DNA from: Sphagnum compactum
Lineage: Eukaryota
Assembly: GCA_965153455.1 (NCBI GenBank)
Contig: OZ234493.1
Span: 36,136,213-36,200,212, forward strand
Length of the DNA: 64,000 bases
Direction: 5' to 3'
The notes under the pieces are model-generated. The model saw only the letters and a program-made list of their open reading frames with translations, had not been told where the DNA came from and made no database searches. This document shows positions 437 through 52,430 of this stretch, one piece after another. The number at the start of each line of letters is the position of its first letter. The first letter of the stretch is position 1. Made by a program: the position numbers and the translations under genes.

Positions 437-3400
437 TTACCTTCCCTCCATTATAGATTTCGTCCTTGAAATCCTTCCTTCAATTAAAAAAAAATTGTTT
501 TTCGTATCATTTTCAATCGTCTGTGGCTTGGTTTGTTCCACCTGAATTATTAATATAGTACTACTTGTACTTCAATCTATGGTCTTGTATGGCCCTTTTT
601 TTTTGTACTTACTTGAAAAACTGAATTTTCAGATAGTGTGGTGTTGTTACACCTTCTTGGTTTTGCTTCTGTGTATGTTTCACCACCTATTCCACACCTT
701 TAATTGGCTCCCTTTGTGTCCCAATATCATTAGTTATTATTTTTGTCTCTTGTTGTGAAGTTGTTTATGTTTGTTCCTCTATTACCATAATTGGAGTATC
801 ATGTCCTCCCCTCAAATTTTTTGATTTTTTTAAATGTTTATCCTTGACTACTCTAATGCACTCAACTTCCTCCACTTCCTATACAAGACTAGACGATTTT
901 GAACCATCTGAACTATTATAAATAAAATTTGGAAAGGTTTTTTTGAACGCAAATAAATGTCTTCTATAGGTGGCCTCATCCTTTCTGTGTGCAACCAATT
1001 TTTTCTACATCTCCTCCTAAAATTAAACCTCTATCAACTCCCACCACTCATCAAGTTCAACATTAGCATCATCCATTTGTTGTTTGGTATGCAATATTGA
1101 ATAATTTTATACCAAGTCATTATATTCTTTCAATTTATTGTTGACATATGCTAGATCCAAATCCTTGTTCTTCTCCACCAAATCATCCAGCTTTGACTTG
1201 GTTTTGACCATCTTGATTACTTTAATTCATTCACCTCAATGATTATTTGTTCTTTGCCCTTTTCAACCTTTTATCTACGAAGCTCCTCTCTTGCAATCAT
1301 GTTCTTCATTTGCAAGATTTACACTGTCATCTTCTGCGACATGGTTTGAATTATAATCTCATGTTCTTGCAATCACAGTTCCCTTTCTCTTTCCAAGCCT
1401 TCAACCTTATGCTTATATTCTATTAATGCCTTTTGATATCAATGGTCTGTGTCATTCCATGCCTCCTCTTTTTTTTTCATCTCCTTACATTCCTTAACTT
1501 TGTCCATTCCATCATCCTTTTCTTCAACTCCTTATTTTTTGTGGTCGATTGCAACATTTTCACATTGACTTTCTCTCATGTCTCCTATTTCTTCCAAGTT
1601 ACTATGCGTTGTTTGTATTGCTCATATATTTCTTTCTCCTACTTCATTTGTTACAATAACCCCTTCTTTTCCCCCTCCACTACAGTTAATCTAATTTTTA
1701 ATGCAAACCCAAATCACCCATTTTCTGATTCACAATTGCCATTGCTCGAAACATTTCTATAGTTTTGTTACTTCCCAATACGTCTTTTGCCAGCTCTTCT
1801 ATAAATTTGGGAGTCAAATTTTGTGGTGTCTCCTCTTTAAAGGCATATTTTGATGACAATCCCCTTTCCCTCATTTGTTAACCCAAATCCATATCCAACC
1901 CCTACCTTTTTGTTGATCCTAATATACTATGTGGTAGCATTATCGCAGGTGGTCCAAAACTATTAAATGTTGATTCTAATACAACCATTTGTGGTTCCTG
2001 GGATGGATGTGGTTGTTATTGCTCCATAAGTGGTTGTGTAACATGTATGTCCATTGGAGCCTCTTGATGGACCTCCATCTATGCATGAAAATCATAAAAA
2101 TCATCCACATCATCATACTACATGTGTTCATGTTGGTTTTTTAGTGTTGTTGTCACATGAGGTAATATGCTCCTTTCTTATTTAATATGCTACAAATGTT
2201 CCCTTCTTTCTTGGTCTTCTTCTGAGTTATGATCCCTATCTATTTTGGACGAAATATGTCCGGTTACCCCTATAGTTGTAACTCATGTTGGTCTAATGTT
2301 TCCATGCATGACTTTTTGAGGCTTAACATCTTTTCCTAACTTCCTCCACATTGCTCTGATCTTTCTTCAACCTCAAATGTGTTCTTCCTTTTCTACAAAA
2401 TTTTTGGAGATCCCCTTGTTGCTCCCTTCTTATTATCCAAAACCTGCTGCAAATCCTCCTTAAACCTCTTGGATTTTTTTTAAGTTTATGTTGTCTTTTT
2501 TGTTATGACCTCATAATCCTCCTCAAACATATACTTGAACAATCCCTCTAAAACGAACATTGAATGACAAATTTCATTCTTGTCTTCATCAGAAATTTAC
2601 AAGCTTCATGGGTGTGTTCCAAATTTGTGTGAATTTGTTATTTCATAAGTTCATATTACTTAAACATGTGAATGTCATGCATTATTTAAACATGGAAGTC
2701 ATATGCATGACTTTTGTGTGTAAACAACACAAATAAACATACAACATCTATGTCTAAACGATACAAATAGGCATATAACATTCGTGTTTAAACAATGCAC
2801 ATGATATCAATGTTCAAACAATACAAGTAGATGAATGACATTAGTGTCCACTCCATACAAACCTATGAAAAGTAGATTTTGCACGACTATTATTGTCAAA
2901 ATATTATGGCCCACAAAATTTGTGATGTTCTTGCTTTCCCCATGTCTACATTTTCTCATGCATTTTTGTCCATCTATCCAATTCACTACACATATTATCT
3001 AACAAAATCAATGCCCAATTTACCTTAATTCCCTCCTCTTCTTCATGGATGTTAGTGCATTTTTGTTGCTTATGTAATTCACCTTCTCCTTCTCATAAAT
3101 CGTAAATATAACTACAGGATATCTAACACTAAATAGTAGTTTACACTTCTTAACATTCCATTGGTCTACATTTGTGTATGGAGGTATAATATCATGTTTG
3201 AACAATAATTTTTTTGTTAATGTTTGGTCATGTATCCTTTAGGATCCTCAACATAACCACTCTGACAAACACCAAAAGCATTAGCTATCAACTACTTGCT
3301 AATGACATACAAATGTTTCTCCTACCAAATAAATCTCAGATCCTTTGATCACAAAAGTATTCAAGAATTCTACTAATGCATCATGATCTGGTTCCTTCCA

Positions 3401-38459: not shown

Positions 38460-40050
38460 GAAAAATGAAGATACACAAGCATGGATTCATTGTCAATAAA
38501 TATTACAACATCAACACAACATTTATGATGTCACCTACCATTAATTATACTTTAGAATTTTCTCATCCAATGTCCATAAATGTTTTTTTGATATCTTGGC
38601 TTTTTTATTAGATTTATTAGCGTTCATTTTTCTTTTGAGTTAATTTCTAACCCATCTTCCCATATGCAACTATGGACCTAGATGAAATGTAGGTCCCATT
38701 CTAAGGGGGGGGGGGAGGGGACATTTAATGTTATTTTTGTAACATATGTGTGTTAAACAACTTAGGGGGGGGGGGGTATTAGGTTTTGGATTTATATTTT
38801 ACCCCACCCTATTATTATCTAATTTTTTATTATGCACATATTTTAGCCACTGTATATATAGTTAGTTTATTTTGAAATTTAATTTCAATACTTATATATT
38901 ATTTTAATTTTTTGTTTTAGAAAAATTGTAGCTAAAAACAAAAATGAAACCATGGAATGTAATTGAAATGAAAAAAATTGCAATTTACAAACATTTATTA
39001 GTCACAAATTAATCAAAACATTATTTCACAATAATTGAACTTGCTCATCACCAACTTGCCCCCTCCATGTATGTGTGTTTTTATAACACTTTAATAATGT
39101 GTTCAAGGTTAAGTGCTAATGAAATGTTGATAAAATCATTGGTCTAATGTTGTGATTAACTAATATCTTAAATATGTAATGCACGTGCTATTTATTTATT
39201 TTTAATTATTAAAAATTTACACATACCCTATATTAATTATAAATTTATTTTCAAGATATATAACCCTATTTTTGAATTAATTAACTTATATCTTTTACCT
39301 TATAACTAATATATTGCATTTTATATTTGTACTCACATATTTTTTATTTTTTTCGAATAGTGTCCCCCCTAAGGTCCCACTTTATGTTCAATGCCCATCT
39401 ATTGCCAATCTAACAGTTAATTATTCCCCATATGCAAACTCAATTTGTCATCAAGTTTACACCGCATAGTTTATAAGCTTGGGACTTATGCAACCCATAA
39501 AATTTGTAAAATTCTTGTGTTTCACAATTGGGTTTTATTCTATTTTATTGCAAACCTTGCTTCACAAACATGGATACCCATGAACTATATTTATAATGAC
39601 ATTAATCTTGAATAAAAATGTTTATGCTTTACACCACCTAATGATTAAATAACAAATTTCTTCATTCCTAAACACCTAACATGAAATATGAAAATGCTCT
39701 TGTTTTAGGTTCAAACCTTCACATTATCATCACTTTTAGGCAAGACATCTTCATTTTATTGTTGGAGTATAGTGTGTTGACCTAAAAATGTCTAATATTA
39801 AGTGTAATAAAACAATTTTCCAACAACAGTATAGGTCCCCCATTTATTTCTAAATTCCAACACCATGCACCTCACATTAGAATTCAAAATCATAATGAAG
39901 AAGATAATTTTTTTGGTCCAAAACACCCATTTCATCTCCATCATAGGGTTTGTAAAAAAAAACCATGCCAAGTCATGAAAGTTTGTTCCACATAAAAAGC
40001 TAAAACCAAAATAAAAAAAGTTCCATGGCAACATTGAATTTATAAACAAC
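38460..40050. repeat. Dispersed repeat, copy 1 (decayed element of unknown class); copy 2 at about 51380-52430, same orientation
   Basis: Shared blocks: tctaacccatcttcccatatgca; tatgttcaatgcccatcta; tagtttataagcttgggac; aaaccttcacatt; tgttgacctaaaaat; aaacaattttccaacaa. Confidence 0.85.
38701..39373. mobile_element. 673-bp non-autonomous TIR element with an 8-bp TSD
   Basis: Ends CTAAGGGGG...GGACA and TGTCCCCCCTAAG. Flanks GTCCCATT (38693-38700) and GTCCCACT (39374-39381). Absent from the paralogous copy near 51660. Confidence 0.8.
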
Positions 40051-42875
40051 CAACCACCTCATAAATGTCATCAATCTTTAATGCACTTGTAAAATTTAAC
40101 ATACAACACACAAACATAAAGCTAAAATGTGCACAAAGCCAAAAAGACAAAGCACCGCTCTTCCTTTTTGTTTTGTGTTTCCCAAATCATTTGTTCATAG
40201 TTTTTAGGAATCAATTTTCGTGTCATGTATTTTGGTAGTGTTCATGATGGTAATGCTTTGGTCTATTATTCTTTTTGAAAAATCACCATCTCCTTGTTCT
40301 ATTGAGCTCCACCTACTAGTTCTTTTGAAACATCTCTTTCTTTAACTTCCAATAATGTGAATACATTAACAATAAAATGTCCTAAAGACGTAGCCTTGAC
40401 AAATTGAATTGTAATATTGATTGTTATAAATTAAAAAACAAGGGTTGGTTGATCAAGTACTTCATGTTGGAAATCCTCCCTTCCATTTGATGTGCAAACT
40501 GAATTTCAACTTAAAGTAACATCCACATTTGCATGTTTGCTTCTAAGACAGTGACTAATTTTGAAATTTGGAAGTCTTGTGGCATAAAAATCCACCTTCC
40601 TTTCTAACTGTACAAATTGGAAACAATCACCAACCACTCAAAAGGTTTGTGGTTAGTCTTGAAAAAAAATAAAATCTACTACAAGAATGGTGGAACTACA
40701 TGATGCCCAAAATGAATGTGTAGTTCACTCACCTTCCACTAGGTGATACCTTTTCTGAACTAAGGTCATGCCTTTATTTGCATAGGCTATGACCTATTCT
40801 TGCTTGCCATTTTTCTAACATAAAATTGTTCTCCCCCATTTTATCAACCAATCAACGTCCAAGATAAACGTTTTCAAAAAATCTAGCCTTGACAAATTGG
40901 CACTTTAAAAAGCTTTTGCTTGAATGTGTCAAAAGAAATTTGGCACAAAGGAGTTCAATGAAAAATATGATCCTTCTTAATTAAATCAAATAAAGGTCCA
41001 ATGAGGTTGGCATGCCCTTTTATGATTTTTTTGTAATATCATCTAAGGCCAAAATTGGCTCTAACATTAATTATTGACACAGGAATGTGGAAATTCAAGA
41101 GAGCTTGTACCTTAGAAGGATCAAGATGGGACAACGTGCATTTATGTGCATCGCTACAACCATGTGCCTCATAAAAGTTATCTCCCTTGCCCCAAAACAA
41201 CATTTTCCCAAATTGAACTTCAAGTTGACAACTTTCAACCTTTCAAATACCAACTTCAAATGATCAAAAAAATCCCCCTCTCTTATTATGGACATTAACA
41301 TCATCAACAAAAATCTTCAAAAACTAATAGGTGTAGTTTTTGAAAATTTACACCATTGTCCAAAAAAATATGTTTGTTGTGGTTTTCAATCAAAACAACA
41401 TCACACTCCACCCGAAAAGACCAAATTTGATAATGACTCCAATCTTTTTATATCATTTTTTCCATCCTAATCTATGATAATCTTAATTACAAATCCAATG
41501 TAGAAAACCACATCAAGTTTTCATGTTCAGTGATTACATGATCAATAAACAACATTGGAAAATAATCTTGTCTAGTTTGAGAACTCAAGGGCATGTAATC
41601 CCCACAAAACCTCTTGTTGCCATCCTTTTTATAGGAAGTGTAACACAACAAGCATACCCTGACGTGCTTTTGCACATATTTCCCAATTGACTTAATGCAT
41701 GTATATTAATATTAACTTCAACTCCTTTTCAAAAAGGAAGTCAAGTGTCATCCTACAAGATGGAAGACCATATGCATCTATGGAATGTTTTCCTAATGCA
41801 CGTATGCCCAATTCACTCTTATGCCATGCATATATGTCTTCAAATTCCCCCAAAAGATCCCATAGTTGTAGTTGAATGAGTTAAGGACTAACCTTGATCT
41901 TGGAGCAAATCTCCATCATCTATCTTCCCCACTTCCAAACTTAGCAACAAGAGATGATTCAACATTTGTGGCTTGGATAGGAAAAACATGATTAGGAATT
42001 AAACCTTTAATTTTATTATTTTCTTCATTTTCGTCCATTTTATCCAATATTGGTAATCATCTTTTTCAATGAGTTGTCCATCCAACAACTTCTAATGTTG
42101 GTTCTATAAAATCAAATTCACTATCTACATGGGTGCCTCCTTCTACATTGTTTCATCCAACCCATGATCCATCAAATCTTCCATGGGCAATTCCATGTTT
42201 TACGAGATCATTTATTAATCCTCATTTACATCACTATTAGATCTAGTAATATTTCCAAACCAATTTCTAGGTCATCATGTGGATCATTAAGTTTTGAAAG
42301 TTATGTGTGACCTAGATTTGACAAAGACAAACCTACCATGCTAACATCTATTTGTTACATTATTTATTTAAGTTCATGGTAAAAAACTATTTATAACATG
42401 TTGACGTAGTGAAAGGGAACATCTCCACTTCTGTGCTAAGCCCATTACATACTGAGATGACTTTTTATTCCACATAAACAACATTAATTTTCATCAAAAA
42501 ATCTAAACCCAACAACACATGGTAGATGTTTCAATGTCCACAATTAGGAACACCATGTTATAGTTGATATTTCCCACTTTGATAGGAAGACCAATGATTT
42601 TTCCTATTGCCCTAGTAATTGTCCCAAAAACCATCTTGTAATTTCTAATTCTCGAAACCATATGCATATGCCCAACTCTCAAACAGTGCCTATTACAATT
42701 ATAAACATTGAGGCCCATGTATATATAAGCCCCTCAATCAACCCATCCTAGATTTCCATAGTTAGATGCAAGGTTAATTTGTTCTGATAAGTTTTATTTA
42801 CACATACCCTTCTAATAGTAGGTGTCATAGAGATTGAAGCAACTTGAAATGTGTGAGCCATGGATTGTAATTCAA

Positions 42876-43695
42876 TGTCGCAACCCCACTTTGGCCAAGT
42901 GTGGGGGTGAAGCCCAACACTTGGAAAAGTTGGAGGTTTGGAGTCCTCCGGGACTCCCGAATGTTCAGAGCGCGACAGCAAGGCCCAAAACACCTCGCCT
43001 TGAGGTAATCTTGGTGTCATTGGAAAGGTCTTGAAACGTAGATATCGAAAATGGCCTCGCATTTGCCATTCGGACATCTGCAGCCCAACTTATGGGCAAA
43101 AGAAGGGCCGGGAGTCAAACTGGCAGTTTGACTCCCGACCACTAAAAGTCGAGAATCGACCCTTTCCCGACGTCGCCTCAGGGATTGCGACATGGCGTTG
43201 AAAAGATCTCGACGAGGGCTACAACTTTGGTTTAGACCTCGTTGCGATCGGACTCCGGAGTCGGGAGTTATGGCCATTCAAAGTTCTAGGAGTCCCGTCG
43301 GGACTATTTCGGGACTCCATTTCGGGAGTCCCAAGAATTTGTGCCATTTGGATGTAGGCTCCGTGGCGAGTTACAGAGAATACTATAAGGGAGAAGGTGG
43401 TGGCTTCTCCCGAGTCCGGGCCGTGGTGAGTCAAGTAGTCCAAAGTGCCCGTGGCTTGTCCCAACACCCAAGGGTGTTCCCGAATGTGAACTAACCCATT
43501 TGTGGTTGGTTTTGGATGCAGATTCGTGCTTGATCTACTAGTCCATCTTCCTAGTCTAATCCTGGGGCTACCAACGCGACCCTCTACCCCTTTCCAGAAT
43601 TGGAAGTCGGGAGCGTGCCCTTCGATCCTAACTTTCCGCAACTTCACATTGGTGAACCCTCAAGTGGGTTCACCCCGGGACCAAGGAGCGCGTCA
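42876..43695. mobile_element. Young 820-bp solo LTR with 5-bp TSD
   Basis: TGTCGC...GCGTCA termini. TTCAA at 42871-42875 and 43696-43700. GC- and CpG-rich compared with its flanks. Removing it rejoins the host frame QFVELQSMAHTFQVASIS. Confidence 0.9.
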
Positions 43696-43839
43696 TTCAA
43701 CAAATTGTTAAATTTTAGTTCCATAACTTTCCTTAGTAATAATGATTTGAATATTTATATACCTCAAAGTAATAATTATTAATAGTTGGATTAGCCTTTG
43801 GATATTTTCAAGCGTAGAGAACTTCTTTATTTAAGATGA

Positions 43840-45921
43840 TGTAACGCTTAATTAGTTTTAGGACCTAGTAAACCTTTTAAAGTGCATTATTCTTTTAGGT
43901 CGTAGAGAGGTGCAAAGGGATGTGGAATTAGATGTGATTTTATTGATATATTGGGAATACAAGCCCATAATTAACATTAACACTTCGACATGACAATATT
44001 GAATTAGTCTGTAGAATAATCTTCGAGCACTAGTGTTGTACTTGTAAGATTTCTAAGATGCAGTCCTAATACATCCTTATTTAGTTTCCACTTCTATTAG
44101 ACTCTTAAATAGAATCAAAATCAACCTTAAGTATTTACATTTTCACCAAAGTAACCTCAAGTGAATTACAACTTAGTAAACCAACTTAAAGGGGATAGAT
44201 CACAATTACAAAAAATCCAGAATGCGACGAATGGTGCGAGCTAAGTATTCGGCTCAATGCTCCATGGGAAGGGGGTTGATTGGGCCTTGTAGCCAACGAT
44301 AATGGCCATCATCGGGAACCCAAGTTCGACAATGAAAACGAACATCATCATCTTCACAATGACACTCTTCAAATCTTTCTGGCGCGGCTCCACGAGCAGG
44401 AACAAATTCTAAATAGATTGCTAAGGCATGTGGGTTGGGAGACAATCGACAATCCCATGCCGAACGATCAACTCGAGTGCGCACCATTCGCCTGGACGGT
44501 TTTTCTTCACGCGGCCGTTGAGAAACATTCACGTCAAGCGGTGCTTCTCCAAGCTCTTCCTGTTCTACTGCAACTGGAGGATTCGAGGGCGTAGCAACAT
44601 CATTCGCCATAACTAAAATTTCACATGCAACAACAAAAACTAAAGGGTAATCGAACTAATTTGGCACTTGCATTCAAGGGGGCTGTTACCTTTATTCAAG
44701 AAATTAGGGTAGGCGTGAGGCGTGGTAGTGACGGCGGAACTTCGTGAAATGCAGAACTTCCTTGTTCCAACGAATTTGTGAAGCCCTAATATCGACGGTG
44801 GATCTAGAAGTACATAGGAATTCTTGTAATTCCAAATTTCATTCTAATTACTATGTACTACATAATTAATTAGTACATGGTAAGGAATGACTAGGGAATG
44901 TTAAAAGAGTAAATGGTGCACGGAAGGGTTACTACTACCATTGAATTGATTTAATCAAATGGGAACTCAAGGATGTTTACTTATTATTACCGGTAAATTA
45001 TCCTAGTAATTAATTACTTAGAATAATTAGGATGAAAAAATGGGATATTAAAGTCGAACAGATGAAATTGACAAGGATAGAGCTCAAGAACCCTATCAAG
45101 ATGTCCAAAATAGGGAAAAGGATGAATCCTCCAATTCCATCGGTCATGAGGATTATCATCCTATTTGATTGGAGAATGGAACCTTCCTCGTGTTTCATTG
45201 GGCATAAGGATTCTCATCCTAATTTCCATAGGAAAGAAAATCATTCTCGATTCTCATTGGTGCATGAAGGATGAGGGGGCCACTGATTGGAGGGAAGGAT
45301 TTCCAAACTTCCATTGGACAAGGAGAACAAACTCAAGGAGGGATTTAGGAGGTTTACCAAGGAGAAAGGAGTATCTTGTGTTTTGGGGAAAGGAAAAGGA
45401 GGAGAATGAAAGTGTGACAAAGATATTAGTTCTTATGTGTGAAAGGTTGTTGTTGATAGAAAAGATGTGTGCAAACAAGAGCATGGAAGGAAGTTGTGTG
45501 TAGCAAGTACTTGAAGTGGAGTTCATAGAAGGATTTCCATGACAAGGCCTCTGGATTTTTATTTGAAATAATTGTTTCTCTCAAATCTGCCATTGGAGTT
45601 GTGTCAAATTTAAAACAATTCTAGTTTAGGAGGTGTAAAAGGTTCCCTCAAAAAATTTGCATCATCAGGTTTGTTGTAAGGGAGCTACACTTGCCGGAAG
45701 TAAAGGGGGTCGAAATTGTCTGTTTTCCTCTTCACATATAGTCAAATAGTTTTTAGCTCCGAGGCATAACTCTTGATTTACAAAATAAAAACTTATAAGA
45801 TTTTGTAACCTTGCTCCTTGTTAGATTAGCTTTTCAAAAATCCAATGCATGTTAGATTAGGAGGTTGTATGAAGATGTTATGACGAATGGAGCGAAGGGG
45901 GTTCAACCATCAAGCGTGACA
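43840..45921 (-). mobile_element. 2082-bp TG..CA bounded unit, probably a long solo LTR, nested in the gypsy gag-protease region
   Basis: Terminal inverted repeats TGTAACGCTTAAT and ATCAAGCGTGACA (11/13 match). Gypsy-like sequence on both sides. TSD only imperfect (ATGA/TTGA). Confidence 0.7.
44254..44610 (-). CDS. Hypothetical 118-aa protein encoded inside the LTR-like unit
   Basis: Intact ATG-TGA frame in a CpG-rich island. A T-rich 77-nt GT..AG intron candidate (44689-44613) ends 2 nt before the ATG. Acidic/proline-rich N-terminus and a Cys/His/Trp-rich C-terminal half. Confidence 0.5.
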   Translation of the reverse strand: MANDVATPSNPPVAVEQEELGEAPLDVNVSQRPREEKPSRRMVRTRVDRSAWDCRLSPNPHALAIYLEFVPARGAAPERFEECHCEDDDVRFHCRTWVPDDGHYRWLQGPINPLPMEH

Positions 45922-48470
45922 TTGAATGAACATCAACATAATGCTCCTTCACATTCCATCATGGCGAGTTATGATTCTCCCACAATGTCTTCGTATCTTT
46001 CAAGTGAACACAACGCATTAGAGTCTTAGTGAACTTCATTATATTACATTGAATCACCTTTACTTGTTAGACTACAACTACATAGTAATTCCATTCTCAA
46101 GTGGGTTTTTTGTGAGTGCATATCTTCATGTGGAAGGTGTGCAAGAATTTTTCACAAAATGTTTGCCACAATTCTTCATCCTTTAATCTCTTGGCAATTT
46201 TCACCAACCCTTCAAGGTATACCAATTCTTTAGGCGTGGCTAATATTATTTTGAAAGGATTGAAAACAATTTTATTACCCTTGAAGAATTGCATGATAAT
46301 TTTGTATTTTGTATGGTTTAATTCACCTCTAAATTTTATCGATCCTTTGATGTTTTTGTCTTCATGGACTCTGCCATTTTTGCCTCCTACACTAGTAAGA
46401 AGATTCCTTTTCTATGGAACTCTTGCTCCTAAAAAACAAATTATTCCAAATAATTGGTTGAGCTCCACGAATGTAACCTTTCCATCATTTACCAATATTT
46501 CCAAGTAATGTTTAAGGTTATAATTTTATGTTTTATGCCCCCCACCATACTTACACATTTTGGTATTTCAATAAACTCAAGACATGTGTGCAAAAGCACT
46601 ATGTCCCACTACATGGTGCAATTGACAACAATTCAAGTTATTGGGATTTCCAAGTTGGGTTACCAAGTGAAAGCACACCACAGGGGGGGCACTTTGGGCA
46701 CTTTCACAACATGTATGTAATGTATATTTTTGTAAAACGTGTTGCATTTAATTTTGGGTCTCACTTTTGGTGTGGGTTTGATTTTTTTATTTTCATGAAG
46801 TCAATGATATCTATTATTATTTGAAATTTTTATGATTAAATTCAAGGAATAATGGGTATATTTATGGTATATGCAATATAATAGAACCTATTTTTGTTTT
46901 TGAACTACACTACATTTTAGTTTGAATTAGTTAACCAAAAAATGTTTGAAATGAAAATTTAAAAAATGACCCACCTCACATATTTTATCATCTTCCATTT
47001 GAAAGTGATAGTTTGCCAAAATGTTAATTTACCACATACTTATGGTCATCACCCCCAAAAACACTCATTTGTGATATGATAATTATCAAACTTTTCACAT
47101 GGCTCACAAACTTATTCCAATCATATGGAATCACAATGTTTAATAGATATTACAAATTTCATAAAGATTAAAAATCATTTTAATCATTTTTTGAATATAT
47201 TTTTATTTTTTAACACACTGTGATGTATATTATTTTGGCACAAATATACTCTAACATCACATCATATTAAATTATGTAGTTTATTTGGAATTTGACTTAT
47301 TTGAGTTTTGACCTACCATAATATGCAAAAAGATTATGAAAATCCTTCATAGTAATGACATGGTTGAAGTTTAAACATGGGACCCCTAAAAAATAGTACA
47401 ATGTGATAACAATTTTGGCCCCCCCGTAATGTGTTTTCACCTTACCTCCTTACCATATTCAACCTCCTTGAAAAAATTAATCAATATCTCATTCAAAACA
47501 TGAATATGTGATTTGTTGATGTTTTTCCTTTAATAATTTCCACCTTCGTCTCATCTTTTATAAGTTCAAAGGCAATTTCACCAATTTTTCAAAAAACCTT
47601 TTCAACTTCAATGGCAGCTACCAACAACTCATCCATATCCTCGTAAGTTTTTATAACACACAACTTATGGATTTTTGGCATAAATCAAACCAAAAACCTT
47701 GTTTTTACATTTGAAATTTTGCCCCTTACAAAAACATGTTCCAACCTATCATAGTACATTTGACCCATTATCGAATATCCTACCTTATAATATCCATCTA
47801 TTTCACCTACAATTTTTTTTCATTATAAACCCCATATTTAACCAACATTAAGGCCTTCAAAGACTCTCAATTATGTACCAATTTTTGGCCTTCCTTTGTA
47901 AATTTAGCCAAGTTATTTTGAAAAAAATAATCCTCATCATCCTCCAACATTTTAATTACCCTTTATAGCCATTATCCCAATCAAAAAATCCTCCAAATGC
48001 TTTCCCCAAAAGACCTTATCCATGCCCTTAGGGTTGGCCATCACATTATGCTAAAAATTTCCTGCAACTCGCCAAAATTAAAATAACCTATCCTAAACAA
48101 AATGATTCTCCTTCAACTATCTACTTCAAGTTCTTTTACTTCTAAGTTGAATGCCTTTGATTTATTGTCATCTTTTTTGAAACTAACATATATGTCATTT
48201 CTTTTTGCATATCTCCAACCTAACTTCCCATATATATCCTTGCTGAAAATCCAACACAAAAAGAGAAAATCCTTTCTAGATAATACAATCTTCAACAATC
48301 AATCTCTAAGCCTACTCTTGTTATCTAATTCCAATTTATAAAATTGTGCATGACACACATTAATTTCAACTTCTATAGGAATCCACATATCTTCTAGTCT
48401 AGGAACTAATTGTTAATATTGCTTTCTAGGGCGTAACAAATTGTACCTACGTCTAAAAGAAAAATTTACT

Positions 48471-49247
48471 TGTTGGGAGTGGAAAATCAACAAATAAAAA
48501 TTATGGGACTAGAAGTCCCAACACAATAACCATGCAAGATAAAGCAATAATAACATTTATTGAATTCCTAAAAAGGGAATACCACCTTTGGAAATGTTCA
48601 AAAAACACATTAAAAACCTAAAAATGGATTATGCATGGAGTGCTACCACTATTGTAACCATGTATACCATTTGCAAACTACTATTAGGCATTATAAACAT
48701 GTTGCATCCTTCTTCCTAGTTGGTCAAAGAGTCATTTACCTTCTTGCAACATGATTTCCACATAGAATAAAACACAACCTACACAAACACCTAGGCTAAA
48801 GAAAAATAAAATTAAATGAAAATGTGGGGCGAAAATCTCCACAACTCTCCACATTGGTTTACTTTCAAAAAACTAAAGTACAAACAAGTTTTTTCCCTCT
48901 TTCCAAACTTCCTCTAACACCTTTTTAAAGCGCCCCCCCCCCTCCCCCCCCCCCCCCGCCCCAAACACACACACACATGATGGGGGAGGGAGACCTCACA
49001 ATGATTTCCACCCATCGCCCTAACCATATCTCTTCTTATTTTCTAACCACCCTCCTAATCTTTTCCAAAGTTAACTTAAGTGAAATGACAAAGTAGTGCC
49101 AACTTCCACCTTTAAAACTAATTAAACCTAGTGGTTTCACTATATAGGTAATTAGATAGTAGTAAATAGCTTTACCTACCATCAATAATTAGATATTACC
49201 AAGATATTATTTAATGAATTAATCTTAAGTTGACTTGCCCACTAACA
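48471..49247 (-). repeat. Probable 777-bp LTR between two gypsy internal regions
   Basis: On the minus strand it begins TGTTAGTG at 49247 directly after the PPT AAAGGAGGGATAA and plausibly ends CCCAACA at 48471. gag remnants follow at lower coordinates. Confidence 0.55.
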
Positions 49248-50450
49248 TTATCCCTCCTTTATTTTGGATTTCATCCTTGAAATCTAGGTCAAGTAGTATG
49301 TTGCAAAGTTGGAGAAGATGAACTATTATTTATATGTTTCGAAAAGGGTGTGCCAAATTTTCCCATCACCATTTAAAACTTAACAGTAGTAAGTAGTTCG
49401 GGTGTAGGAGTATGGTAACGTACCACCTAGTTAAAAAGGAATCAAATTATCACTATTATCGTTTAAACTTTCTAATGACTTGGAATTAGTTGTCACTAGC
49501 ACTTTGTTTGCATTGAAATTAGGGGAATTCTGCTAGTAAGCGATAAGTTGTCAGGTGTAGATTGCTTCATTCACCTCTTGAAGTGCCAAGGTAGTATCCA
49601 ACATGCCCTGCACATTTAATCTAAATCGTTGTTGACATTATTTTCGAATGGTGTTCTTTTTCAACTTCCAAGCTATTGTTTGTGCTTAAAGTAGAACATG
49701 TTTTTCACCATGGTCTCATACCTTTCCAATATGTTATTCGTCATAGTTACACATTGAACATGTTTTTTTCACTTTCCCATTTAGGCCTATAGGTTGGTAA
49801 TTATTGTCCTTAACTAATTGTTATACTCATTTTATAATTCTACCACCTCCTTTTTTGTTCTATCCAAGCAAGTAAAAGGCTTGATAGTTTTCTCCTTGTA
49901 TTCTTCTTCATGTAATACTCCCACTAGTGCCTTAACAACTTTTCTTTGGTGTTCCATTCAAATTTCGAGCTATTTTTGAAGGCAACTACCTTCCCAATTA
50001 ACTCCATGATCTTCTGCAATTAGGTCTACATGATTTGACCTTGATGGGTTAACAATGCTTTGATTTTGTCTAACATGGTCTATAAACTATTAACCCATTG
50101 AAAATTTTCTTCCACTAGCTTTTATTGGTCGATAAATTCATTTAAGGATTGGGCAAGGCTTTGATTTTATCACCTTTCCTCTACCAAACGTTCTTCTAAA
50201 GTGGCAATTTGGGCTTGATATTATCCTACCATTTTTTCCATTTGCCACTAGCCTTTAATGGCAAAAAAAATTTGGGTCAATGCATCTAGTTCGCCAACTA
50301 CCACCTCAAGAACTATTGATTGTCATTATATATGCTCGAAGGTAGCTTGTAATGTACACCTTTTCCACTATGGTGGTAATCATCTTGGTAATACCTTTAG
50401 AGCTTACAGAGGCCTCCTCTAGAATTATCACTTGACATTATTATAATTCA
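49248..50450 (-). mobile_element. 3' end of another gypsy internal region (decayed coiled-coil-type ORF plus PPT)
   Basis: Broken E/K/L-rich frame (AQIATLEERLVEE) ending in GATTTCAAGGATGAAATC plus a polypurine tract, like the arrangement at 437-473. Confidence 0.6.
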
Positions 50451-50699
50451 TAGTTTTTTTATTAGGTTTTCTAGTTTTAAAAATTACCTAACAATGATAG
50501 TATGCATAAAAAAGACCACCATGTCAATTTGGACAAGTTGATTTGAACCTACCAATGTGATTGGGAAGTCAATTTGGACTTTATCATTTTGATTGATAAA
50601 GTGATTGATAAAGTTATTCATTATTTGACTAATAGCCAATGGACTATTTGATTGGGTCAAATTAAATTAAAATCATTTTTTGGATTATTATTTTAAAAA

Positions 50700-51290
50700 A
50701 TTAATAGATAGGTAGATAAATAGGTAGATAGGTAATAAATAAGTCTAAGTAGGTCAAAAAAAATGCACTTAGGTAGTAGGTGCTAACCTAACTTAACCTA
50801 CCTAACTTAACATAATTTCACCAAACTACCTTAATCTAACCTACTTACCTTAGCCTTCTATGTATGCACATAGGTTGCAAATATAAGAAGTTAAACCCCA
50901 AATTTTCATAATGATAAACCAAGTCCTTACCAATGGACTATACCATCAAATGTGTTCAACATTCGTCAAGTTTTTAAATTCACATGTTTATTTCACATCA
51001 TTAAATATAGTGGTTAAACCTAAGCAACAACAAATAATTAAACATAATGGTTGAATCATATGGCTAAACCTAATGGTTTTAATCTAGTGGTTAAATTTAA
51101 TGGCTAAACCTTGGCTAAACTTAATGATTAAATTTAATGGCTAAACATATTGACTAAATTTAATTGATAAACATAATGGTTAAACTTCCTAATTAAACTT
51201 TGGTTAAACCTAGTTGATAAACCTAATGGCTAAATTTTAACTAAATTCAATGGCTAAATCTAGTGGTTAAACATAATGATTAAACCTTGG
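50700..51290 (-). repeat. tRNA-like head (50946-50873) with TAGGT-rich tail (50860-50700) and an adjacent 13-14 bp GGYTAAACCT array (51010-51290)
   Basis: Minus-strand A-box-like TAGTCCATTGG (50940-50930) and B-box-like GGTTTAACTTC (50897-50887). Repeated ggttaaacc/ggctaaacc units. Confidence 0.5.
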
Positions 51291-51379
51291 TATTTGTTTA
51301 TTACCATTAACATGTTTATTAAAATTCTAATACACAACCTTAATCCATTTAATTAACCAATTGTATAGCTTAAAAAATA

Positions 51380-52430
51380 AATTTAATTTTGATCATATAC
51401 TATGCATAACATTGACAATAATATGTTGGTCATTCAACACATCAAGAAAAATGAAAATGCACAAACATGGATCATATTCACTAAATATTGCAACATCACC
51501 ACAACAATTATAATGCCACCTACCAACTATCATTTTCCCATCCAACATTTATATTATGTATTTTTTTATATCATGCCTTTGTATTAGATCTTTCAATGTT
51601 AATTTTTTTTTTGGAGCCTCTAACCCATCTTCCCATATGCATGTATCGCCTATATTATAGATCCCAATCTATGTTCAATGCCCATCTACTACCAATATGA
51701 GAGCCAACAATTCCCCGTACCCAAACTCAAATTGTTATCATGTTTACACCACCTAGTTTATAAGCTTGGGACATATGCAACCAATGAAATTTCTTTTTTC
51801 CTATTTTACTACAAACCCCACCTCACAAACAAGGATATCCATGAATTAAGTTTCTAACAACATTGATTTTGGATTAAAATGTTTATGTTTTACACCCACC
51901 TAATGATCAAATAACAAGTTTCATTTCTAGACATCTAATATGAGATATGAAAATGCACCTTTTTAAGGTCCAAACCTTCACATTCTCATCATTTCTAACC
52001 AAAACAACTTCATTTTATTGTTAAAGTACAATATGTTGACCTAAAAATCGTCTACTAGGTGTAGCAAAACAATTTTCCAACAATAGCAATATAGATCCTC
52101 CAATCTTACAACTTGCATTAACAATTCCCAAGACTATTGAAATTTTGCCATCCAACAAGCAAAAAAACACTACTTAGTTTTATGCAAATTTTTCATTTTT
52201 CCAATTTGATCACCATTGTCTTCTACTCCTCCATTTATCTTTGAATTATAGCACCATGCTCCTCACATTGGAATTAAACATCATAATGAGGAAGCCAATG
52301 AAACAAAAAAGATTCATAACAGCCCTTCATTTGCATCATAAGGTTTGTAAAAGAAAAACACATTGCCAATTCATGAAAAATCATTTCACAAAGAAAACAA
52401 TAATCAGAACAAAGAAATCTCCATGGTAGG
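51380..52430. repeat. Dispersed repeat, copy 2 (paralog of 38460-40050)
   Basis: Same shared blocks as copy 1; lacks the 673-bp TIR insertion. Confidence 0.85.

Follow-up and report, generated by a model that had tools for sequence, protein, structure and literature searches.

Mouse mammary tumor virus (MMTV), a vertebrate retrovirus, encodes a membrane glycoprotein of about 320 residues, Sag, from a gene in the U3 portion of its long terminal repeat (LTR). Two other cases are partial: the coding sequences of nef in human and simian immunodeficiency viruses (HIV/SIV) and of the start of gag in Ty1 reach across only one edge of an LTR, with the remainder in the internal region. The VANC proteins of VANDAL elements, which are DNA transposons, are anti-silencing accessory proteins that serve their own family. 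Here, we describe a repeat in a 64,000-nt window of Sphagnum compactum DNA (contig OZ234493.1); the window is the whole stretch that was analyzed, all coordinates refer to it, and the repeat is read on its minus strand. We put at about 75% the probability that this repeat is the solo LTR of a high-copy, plant-type LTR-retrotransposon family whose LTR bears a selected open reading frame (ORF) of 137 codons. Taken on its own, the copy in the window is a dead solo LTR of ordinary kind.

Plant LTR retrotransposons are known to carry additional ORFs (aORFs), among them those of Grande, RIRE2 and Retand and the env-like ORFs of Athila/Bagy2. According to a 2020 review, these are orphan genes that are present in most copies, are conserved like the other proteins of the element, and occupy the internal region, in most cases the part that separates pol from the 3' LTR (PMC7264820). 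The Sphagnum ORF resembles them in its presence across copies, with its ATG kept in 76 of 78 distinct copies, and differs from them in position, since it lies entirely within the LTR in all aligned copies, about 500 nt from the LTR end. A phrase search of the text of PMC7264820 for ORFs within the LTR or beside gag found none, and the internal region is where that review places the accessory genes of plant LTR retrotransposons.

Like MMTV sag, also called the "LTR ORF", the Sphagnum ORF is a coding frame wholly inside the LTR and is therefore carried by every LTR (PMC2118998). The two differ in that the present family is plant-type, its ORF encodes 137 residues, and the probable place of this ORF is downstream of the core promoter; no relationship to Sag appeared as a Pfam match (E up to 10), a PDB sequence match or a Foldseek match below E 0.1. 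In contrast to nef and Ty1 gag, the ORF both starts and stops inside the LTR. It is unrelated in sequence to VANC as far as Pfam shows. With the RNA-export adaptors Rev/Rex and CERV of Caenorhabditis elegans Cer1 it shares the character of a small accessory protein, a likeness that here goes by motifs and extends to no similarity in sequence. Full-text literature searches, which work by wording and miss subscription journals, returned the MMTV LTR ORF as the only gene inside an LTR, and "not described" is for that reason provisional. With this proviso, a selected orphan gene that lies wholly inside an LTR and is conserved beyond the LTR's recognizable sequence would be new among retrotransposon accessory genes. 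Such a gene would make a solo LTR a possible coding unit, beyond a promoter relic, and it would be doubled in each element and survive the loss of gag-pol.

Selection on the ORF and decay of its copies

Metagenome contigs were scanned for relatives of the ORF, which turned up at 572 places, and the best 80 of these (loci L001-L080) were compared with the window copy. The loci were picked by protein match with tblastn, which favors frames free of frameshifts and proteins that are similar to the query. When the ORF columns are left out and a tree is made from the rest of the LTR, its copies fall into star-like bursts (median end branch 0.032) that well-supported inner branches connect. Our test of selection uses differences fixed between seven clades of this tree, each a well-supported or nested subfamily, and such differences represent changes in lineages that continued transposing. 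In the ORF frame they comprise 41 synonymous changes, 19 nonsynonymous changes and no stop codon (ratio of nonsynonymous to synonymous change, pN/pS, 0.15; p=7e-13), whereas the same differences read in two wrong frames give 8 synonymous, 48 nonsynonymous and 6 stop, and 7, 46 and 9, respectively. A five-clade version places 36 of 52 changes at codon position 3, and fixed differences are as dense at third positions (36 in 136) as in the non-coding LTR upstream (0.24 per column). Constraint is stronger in codons 46-136 (pN/pS 0.08) than in the N-terminal 45 (0.36). Codons 119-136 are free of selection by the search because they lie outside its query, and there the fixed differences are 8 synonymous and 1 nonsynonymous.

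This pattern indicates that the ORF was under purifying selection in the lineages that kept transposing. From the clade-fixed differences, together with a sister family that shares only the ORF (described below), we conclude that a genuine gene under selection was present in the LTR during the replication of the family. A first-pass annotation of this DNA had suggested a retrotransposon accessory gene placed inside the LTR, and the fixed differences bear this out at the level of the family; the copy in the window is broken. Selection is also visible, less directly, in the whole set of copies. Stops average 1.15 per copy in the ORF frame, compared with 4.3-8.2 when the other five frames are read, and diversity at codon positions 1, 2 and 3 is 0.156, 0.104 and 0.171. 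The frame on the plus strand (44280-44594, 104 residues), which the first-pass annotation had considered as the possibly conserved one, is excluded by 4.3 stops per copy and a pN/pS of 0.89. Pairwise dN/dS binned by dS was rejected as a measure, since conditioning on dS introduces bias.

An open frame could also arise by accident in a locally GC-rich segment of an LTR and never code for protein, with the signal of selection stemming from the way loci were chosen or from constraint on the RNA or DNA itself. The sampling by tblastn, the neutral decay of individual copies, pairwise dN/dS values that fall only modestly under the wrong-frame controls, and the failure to find a domain or fold would all fit such an origin. 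We nonetheless consider it very unlikely: the clade-fixed differences are concentrated at the third codon position in the ORF frame and lose their coding character in the wrong frames, the tail codons that the search could not select repeat the pattern, full-length frames persist in relatives at 35-45% identity, and the ORF is the sole part of the LTR that aligns with the sister family. Constraint on the nucleic acid, moreover, would not spare third codon positions.

The product belongs to a large family of orphan proteins. A protein search returned 1556 clusters at E<=0.01 out of 1558 candidates, of which the best 120 are 76-87% identical to the query and mostly 137 or 143 residues long, and nearly all source names of proteins in this family read "hypothetical protein". 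For annotation, this means that many hypothetical proteins of 119-143 residues in public sets are LTR-borne ORFs, mostly decayed. Among 1.84 billion representative proteins, 312 matched a profile of the family at E<=0.001. More distant full-length relatives (P0227, P0285, P0320 and P0257, at 35-45% identity) retain the motifs GHYRWLRGPI and TIRRILxFLQL. Cysteines 84, 86 and 95 are invariant or nearly so in close copies; the CxC and HC cysteines are absent from P0285, P0320 and P0257, and in P0227 cysteines stand at other positions nearby, a distribution that speaks against the metal binding once suggested for this protein.

The sister family is an LTR-like repeat of about 2.4 kb that starts with TGAGGC and was found at two places (L004:2085-4441 and L010:14-1948), the first of which holds a decayed homologue of the ORF (L004:3600-4001). 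Only the ORF can be aligned between this family and the main LTR, at 57.7% identity over 411 nt. Upstream of its ORF, the sister family likewise carries tandem repeats, here of about 190 bp, and a TATAAAT stands about 100 nt before the ATG. An orphan protein family is, in other words, the most conserved part of two diverged LTR families. These results bear on a further explanation, namely that the retrotransposon took up part of a host gene by transduction and that the ORF is this captured piece. Gene capture by plant LTR elements is known, and captured genes occur in one or few copies (PMC7264820). The present ORF is instead found throughout its family and in the sister family, all of the 150 profile matches listed are at most 174 residues long, many of them fragments, and a separate search for proteins longer than 207 residues gave only three, of 211-219 residues, with no gag or pol fusions. 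We regard capture as highly improbable.

Most copies have an upstream ATG within 44620-44650 (ATGCAGGTG...), which opens a short upstream ORF of 5-9 codons. In one subfamily, a 1-nt difference brings this ATG into frame with the main ORF, and this accounts for the 143-residue forms beginning MQVQLVMADD... in databases.

Once inserted, individual copies decay neutrally through C>T and G>A transitions. A complete 137-residue translation remains in only 18 of 78 copies, and the 79 copies that include the window hold 91 premature stops, mostly at CGA, CAA/CAG and TGG codons and attributable to C>T or G>A changes. At six CGA codons, nonsense changes (49 to TGA and 4 to TAA) are nearly as common as missense changes to CAA (67), which suggests that stops are barely selected against in inserted copies. 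A check on retention of the frame in individual copies thus comes out as neutral, while the clade-fixed ratio of 0.15 records constraint between lineages. A count of 12 indels in the ORF against 79 upstream was not used, as the loci had been chosen for unbroken protein matches.

The window copy of the gene is a dead relic. As first annotated, a minus-strand frame of 118 codons begins with the ATG at 44610 and ends at 44254, in a window that is AT-rich (27-44% G+C). This frame had been described as intact, which it is not. Its stop is a premature one at codon 119 (44256-44254), it is short by one codon near codon 15 that all other copies have, and a second stop follows at window codon 135. Aligned relatives run on past the window stop for 19 residues (...MEH RAEYLARTIRRILEFLQL), and the window copy is therefore cut short. 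Codon 119 is a mutational hotspot, with a stop there in 18 of 79 copies. No Pfam family was found at E up to 10 for the 118-residue frame or for the plus-strand frame, and none for any of 30 other window ORFs tested.

Extent and identity of the repeat

The repeat was originally drawn as a unit of 2082 bp with TG and CA at its ends. Those letters are present, at 45921-45920 and 43841-43840, and they are not ends: in a blastn comparison of window positions 41000-49000 with the 80 loci, homology crosses both 45921 and 43840 and stops sharply at 46156 and at about 43696, which places the proposed termini inside the repeat. The missing 3' terminus of the window copy lies at 42869-42852, and the true extent is 3305 bp (46156-42852), of which 2480 bp belong to the LTR itself and the rest to a nested solo LTR of 820 bp and the TTGAA duplication of that insert. 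On the minus strand the window unit starts with TGTGAA and ends with GGCTCACA, and the family has TG...CA ends with a 6-bp inverted repeat (TGTGAG...CTCACA). A perfect 5-bp duplication, CATTT, flanks the unit. Contigs from three DNA runs represent the empty site, connecting 42846 directly to 46157 with 3310 bases skipped and 5 letters shared; they probably come from other copies of the host element.

The same edges recur across the family. All 42 loci with enough flank share a common start base next to unrelated flanks, the start reading TGT[GC]A in 39 loci and TATGA or ATGAG in 3. A common 3' edge in 66 loci falls about 20-24 bases beyond the break in the window copy, and these mostly end in ...GGCTCACA. 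In 30 loci for which a script found both ends, the flanking duplication is a perfect 5 bp in 16 and has one mismatch in 6. The identification of the unit as an LTR without gag or pol, made in the first-pass annotation, is thereby upheld by its TG...CA ends, its duplication and its empty site. The solo LTR would have been left behind by LTR-LTR recombination. Within the unit we found neither terminal direct repeats nor long inverted repeats, and a structure like that of a terminal-repeat retrotransposon in miniature (TRIM) was rejected because the small terminal repeats are absent. The sole internal repeat is a unit of about 200 bp upstream of the ORF (45710-45511). No second copy of the unit is present in the 64-kb window.

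Several results count against the conclusion that this is a solo LTR with a selected gene. Two copies within reach of each other were seen in 0 of 80 loci, in contigs that rarely assemble through paired LTRs, and 0 of 96 LTR-adjacent flanks of up to 1.5 kb were common to different loci. The lack of paired LTRs weighs little, since short-read metagenome contigs are biased against near-identical LTR pairs. Eight of the 30 loci lack a duplication, although one of these (L073) is a parsing error and two others (L002 and L003) are a single locus. The choice of loci by protein similarity biases the sample. Pairwise dN/dS of 0.36-0.43 is close to wrong-frame values of 0.53-0.95 and is weak evidence alone, and a test of shared versus private variants was rejected because the "shared" variants are mostly recurrent transitions. 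In the RNA, a single poly(A) run (X4), depth on the studied LTR is 0-5.7 and falls to zero over 44555-44788. Finally, any function proposed for the protein is guesswork, as no match was obtained in Pfam, PDB, the protein atlas or by fold, and the structural models are poor.

The absence of paired copies and of an internal region in the 80 loci and 96 flanks, together with the cassette-like layout described below, also raises the possibility that the 2.5-kb unit is no LTR, that it is instead a self-contained non-autonomous mobile element, or a host gene family in dispersed copies, which brings along a promoter, a gene and a terminator. The TG...CA ends, the 6-bp inverted repeat, the 5-bp duplications and the precise empty site are ends of the kind made by an integrase, the lack of internal terminal direct repeats and of long inverted repeats leaves no structure of the TRIM or terminal-inverted-repeat type, and contig assembly disfavors paired LTRs in any case. 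We also know of no route of reverse transcription for a lone LTR-like unit. This explanation is accordingly quite improbable, and we retain the solo LTR.

Flanking DNA was also searched for a full-length element. Flank matches occur only among repeats of the same locus, at >=98.6% identity. Large ORFs in the flanks come from host genes or from fragments of other copia and gypsy elements, which face either way. A short downstream flank common to L036 and L042 was rejected as an internal region, since the sequence continues into a gypsy RNaseH-integrase of opposite orientation. In L070, the LTR copy has a cytochrome P450 gene as a neighbor at a distance of about 5 kb (923-3130), split into three ORF pieces that are presumably exons, which indicates that LTR copies are not confined to repeat-only DNA. 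Loci L031 and L035 are near-identical copies that share 1.5 kb of 5' flank at 98.6%; after the LTR end, L031 shows the duplication AACTA and L035 continues into other sequence. Possible causes are a rearrangement and, at a single locus present in different samples, a second insertion.

Layout of the LTR and proposed role of its product

The arrangement of motifs in the LTR suggests that the ORF would lie on the LTR sense strand, in the order tandem repeats, TATA-like block, ORF, AATAAA, and then about 140-250 nt to the end of the LTR. The TATA-like block is the most conserved non-coding part of the repeat, and the bin at 44725-44701 has a diversity of 0.068, the lowest of the stretch. The three AATAAA motifs downstream of the ORF, at 44081, 43944 and 43831, are retained in 68, 65 and 63 of 79 aligned copies. 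A TATA-like sequence near 45560, pointed out in the first-pass annotation, falls within the unit of about 200 bp that is tandemly repeated in other copies. The variation of this unit between one and three copies resembles that of U3 enhancer repeats, which often vary in this way. From these features we infer a U3-R-U5 layout in which the ORF would sit in R/U5 and would be the first ORF on RNA started in the LTR.

The ORF had been described as part of a spliced gene with a 77-nt intron, with a donor at AAG|GTAACA (44692-44684) and an acceptor TTTTAG two bases ahead of the ATG. Both strings are present in the window. Only 1 of 78 other copies has a GT at the donor position, and 4 of 76 have one anywhere in the ten columns around it; the donor is a private change of the window copy inside the most conserved non-coding block; the acceptor AG is kept in 67 of 78 copies as part of a TAG immediately before the ATG. 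The gene most probably has no intron. For RNA we used the X4 run, which has the same species label under an organism code that differs from that of the DNA runs, was read to about 12%, and was mapped at 85% likeness. No joints, and no pile-up of read starts or ends, appeared on the studied LTR in X4, including across the proposed junction. X4 reads there are mostly first-mate-on-minus, in a library whose strand rule is uncalibrated, and a loose end resembling a primer-binding site (PBS) was judged unsafe as a clue that the first mate is sense. One RNA sample gives splicing no support, yet it cannot show silence.

These results bear directly on the view that the window copy is a live expression cassette, a 2082-bp LTR-like unit from 45921 to 43840 that carries its own intact, spliced gene. 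The existence of the splice motifs in the window and the wide retention of the AG before the ATG agree with it. Its proposed ends are internal to the repeat, its donor is all but private and its AG belongs to a TAG, the X4 run holds no joints and has no depth where the exon border and start codon would be (44555-44788), and its frame is truncated at codon 119 of 137. We find this view barely tenable, and return to a decayed solo LTR whose family carried the gene.

Predicted structure gives few leads on what the protein does. AlphaFold2 with close copies reached a mean predicted local distance difference test score (pLDDT) of 40.6, and with a more diverse alignment 52.6, in a model that leaves residues 1-49 disordered and shows five strands and, as its best-predicted part, a helix at the C-terminus (117-134). 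The PDB sequence profile gave no match and the protein atlas no usable one. Comparison of the model with known folds, which the first-pass annotation had recommended, turned up nothing in PDB by Foldseek below E 0.1, with template modeling (TM) scores <=0.28. The product would be an orphan accessory protein whose N-terminus is acidic and disordered, with an Arg-rich stretch, a beta core of small size and, at the C-terminus, a conserved amphipathic helix. We take the Arg-rich RRVVRTRVDR and the conserved I-xxx-L-xx-L-x-L tail to resemble RNA-binding and export motifs of small retroviral adaptors, as a lead only, and the helix bearing the latter presumably fits the class-1a nuclear export signal pattern. 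The target of the protein, which probably works in trans, would be either RNA of the element itself or the silencing of the element.

A bolder proposal is that each LTR forms a complete cassette, with a promoter, the 137-residue ORF within R and a poly(A) signal, and that the LTRs, including hundreds of solo ones, would supply the protein in trans. We regard this as unlikely, and state it for what it would entail. The protein would then serve a few replication-competent elements as an RNA export or packaging adaptor of the Rev/CERV kind, or as an anti-silencing factor, and the family would hold a distributed helper function stored within its repeats, something unreported for plant retrotransposons in the literature searched.

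Features of the locus and neighboring elements

Table 1. Positions of the features discussed, numbered along the 64,000-nt window.
Feature	Position	Strand	Remarks
Solo LTR	42852..46156	-	Sharp homology edges, terminus match, direct reading, DNA contigs
Target-site duplication CATTT, upstream copy	46157..46161	-	Read directly
Target-site duplication CATTT, downstream copy	42847..42851	-	Read directly
Unit of ~200 bp	45511..45710	-	Single in window; 2-3 tandem copies in many other loci
Most conserved non-coding block, TATA-like/AATAAA motif	44686..44712	-	Family form CTACCCTAATTTGTTAAATAAAAAGG; ~85 nt upstream of ATG
Remnant of the family's 137-codon ORF	44200..44610	-	ATG 44610-44608; family natural stop 44202-44200
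Three AATAAA motifs downstream of ORF, candidate poly(A) signals	43826..44081	-	Starts 44081, 43944, 43831
Nested 820-bp solo LTR, other family	42876..43695	.	Minus strand reads TGACGCG...GCGACA
Host Ty3/gypsy element	39372-52102	-	Gag, RT-RNaseH, LTR-like direct repeats

The solo LTR lies inside an older Ty3/gypsy element, as judged from the gag (47756-47535) and reverse transcriptase-RNaseH (RT-RNaseH, 41740-40571) sequences that surround it on the same strand, and from LTR-like direct repeats at 39372-39842 and 51659-52102 that are 76% identical. Within the solo LTR, in turn, the nested 820-bp LTR is bordered by its TTGAA duplication at 43700-43696 and 42875-42871. The 820-bp repeat is dispersed among other loci in both orientations, and one X3 contig holds the studied LTR without this insert.

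The 820-bp LTR family is strongly transcribed in the X4 run, at a depth of 240-360, and loose ends at both of its edges continue into other sequence, one of them PBS-like and lying past 43695. The studied LTR and the 820-bp LTR are nested or adjoining in 4 of 81 places (the 80 loci and the window), in differing arrangements. Apart from the window, these are L039:7821-11361, L078:10933-11795 and L010:10507-11340, and at L039 the studied LTR lies inside the 820-bp one. The two LTRs may prefer similar sites for insertion, or may occupy a chromatin compartment in common.

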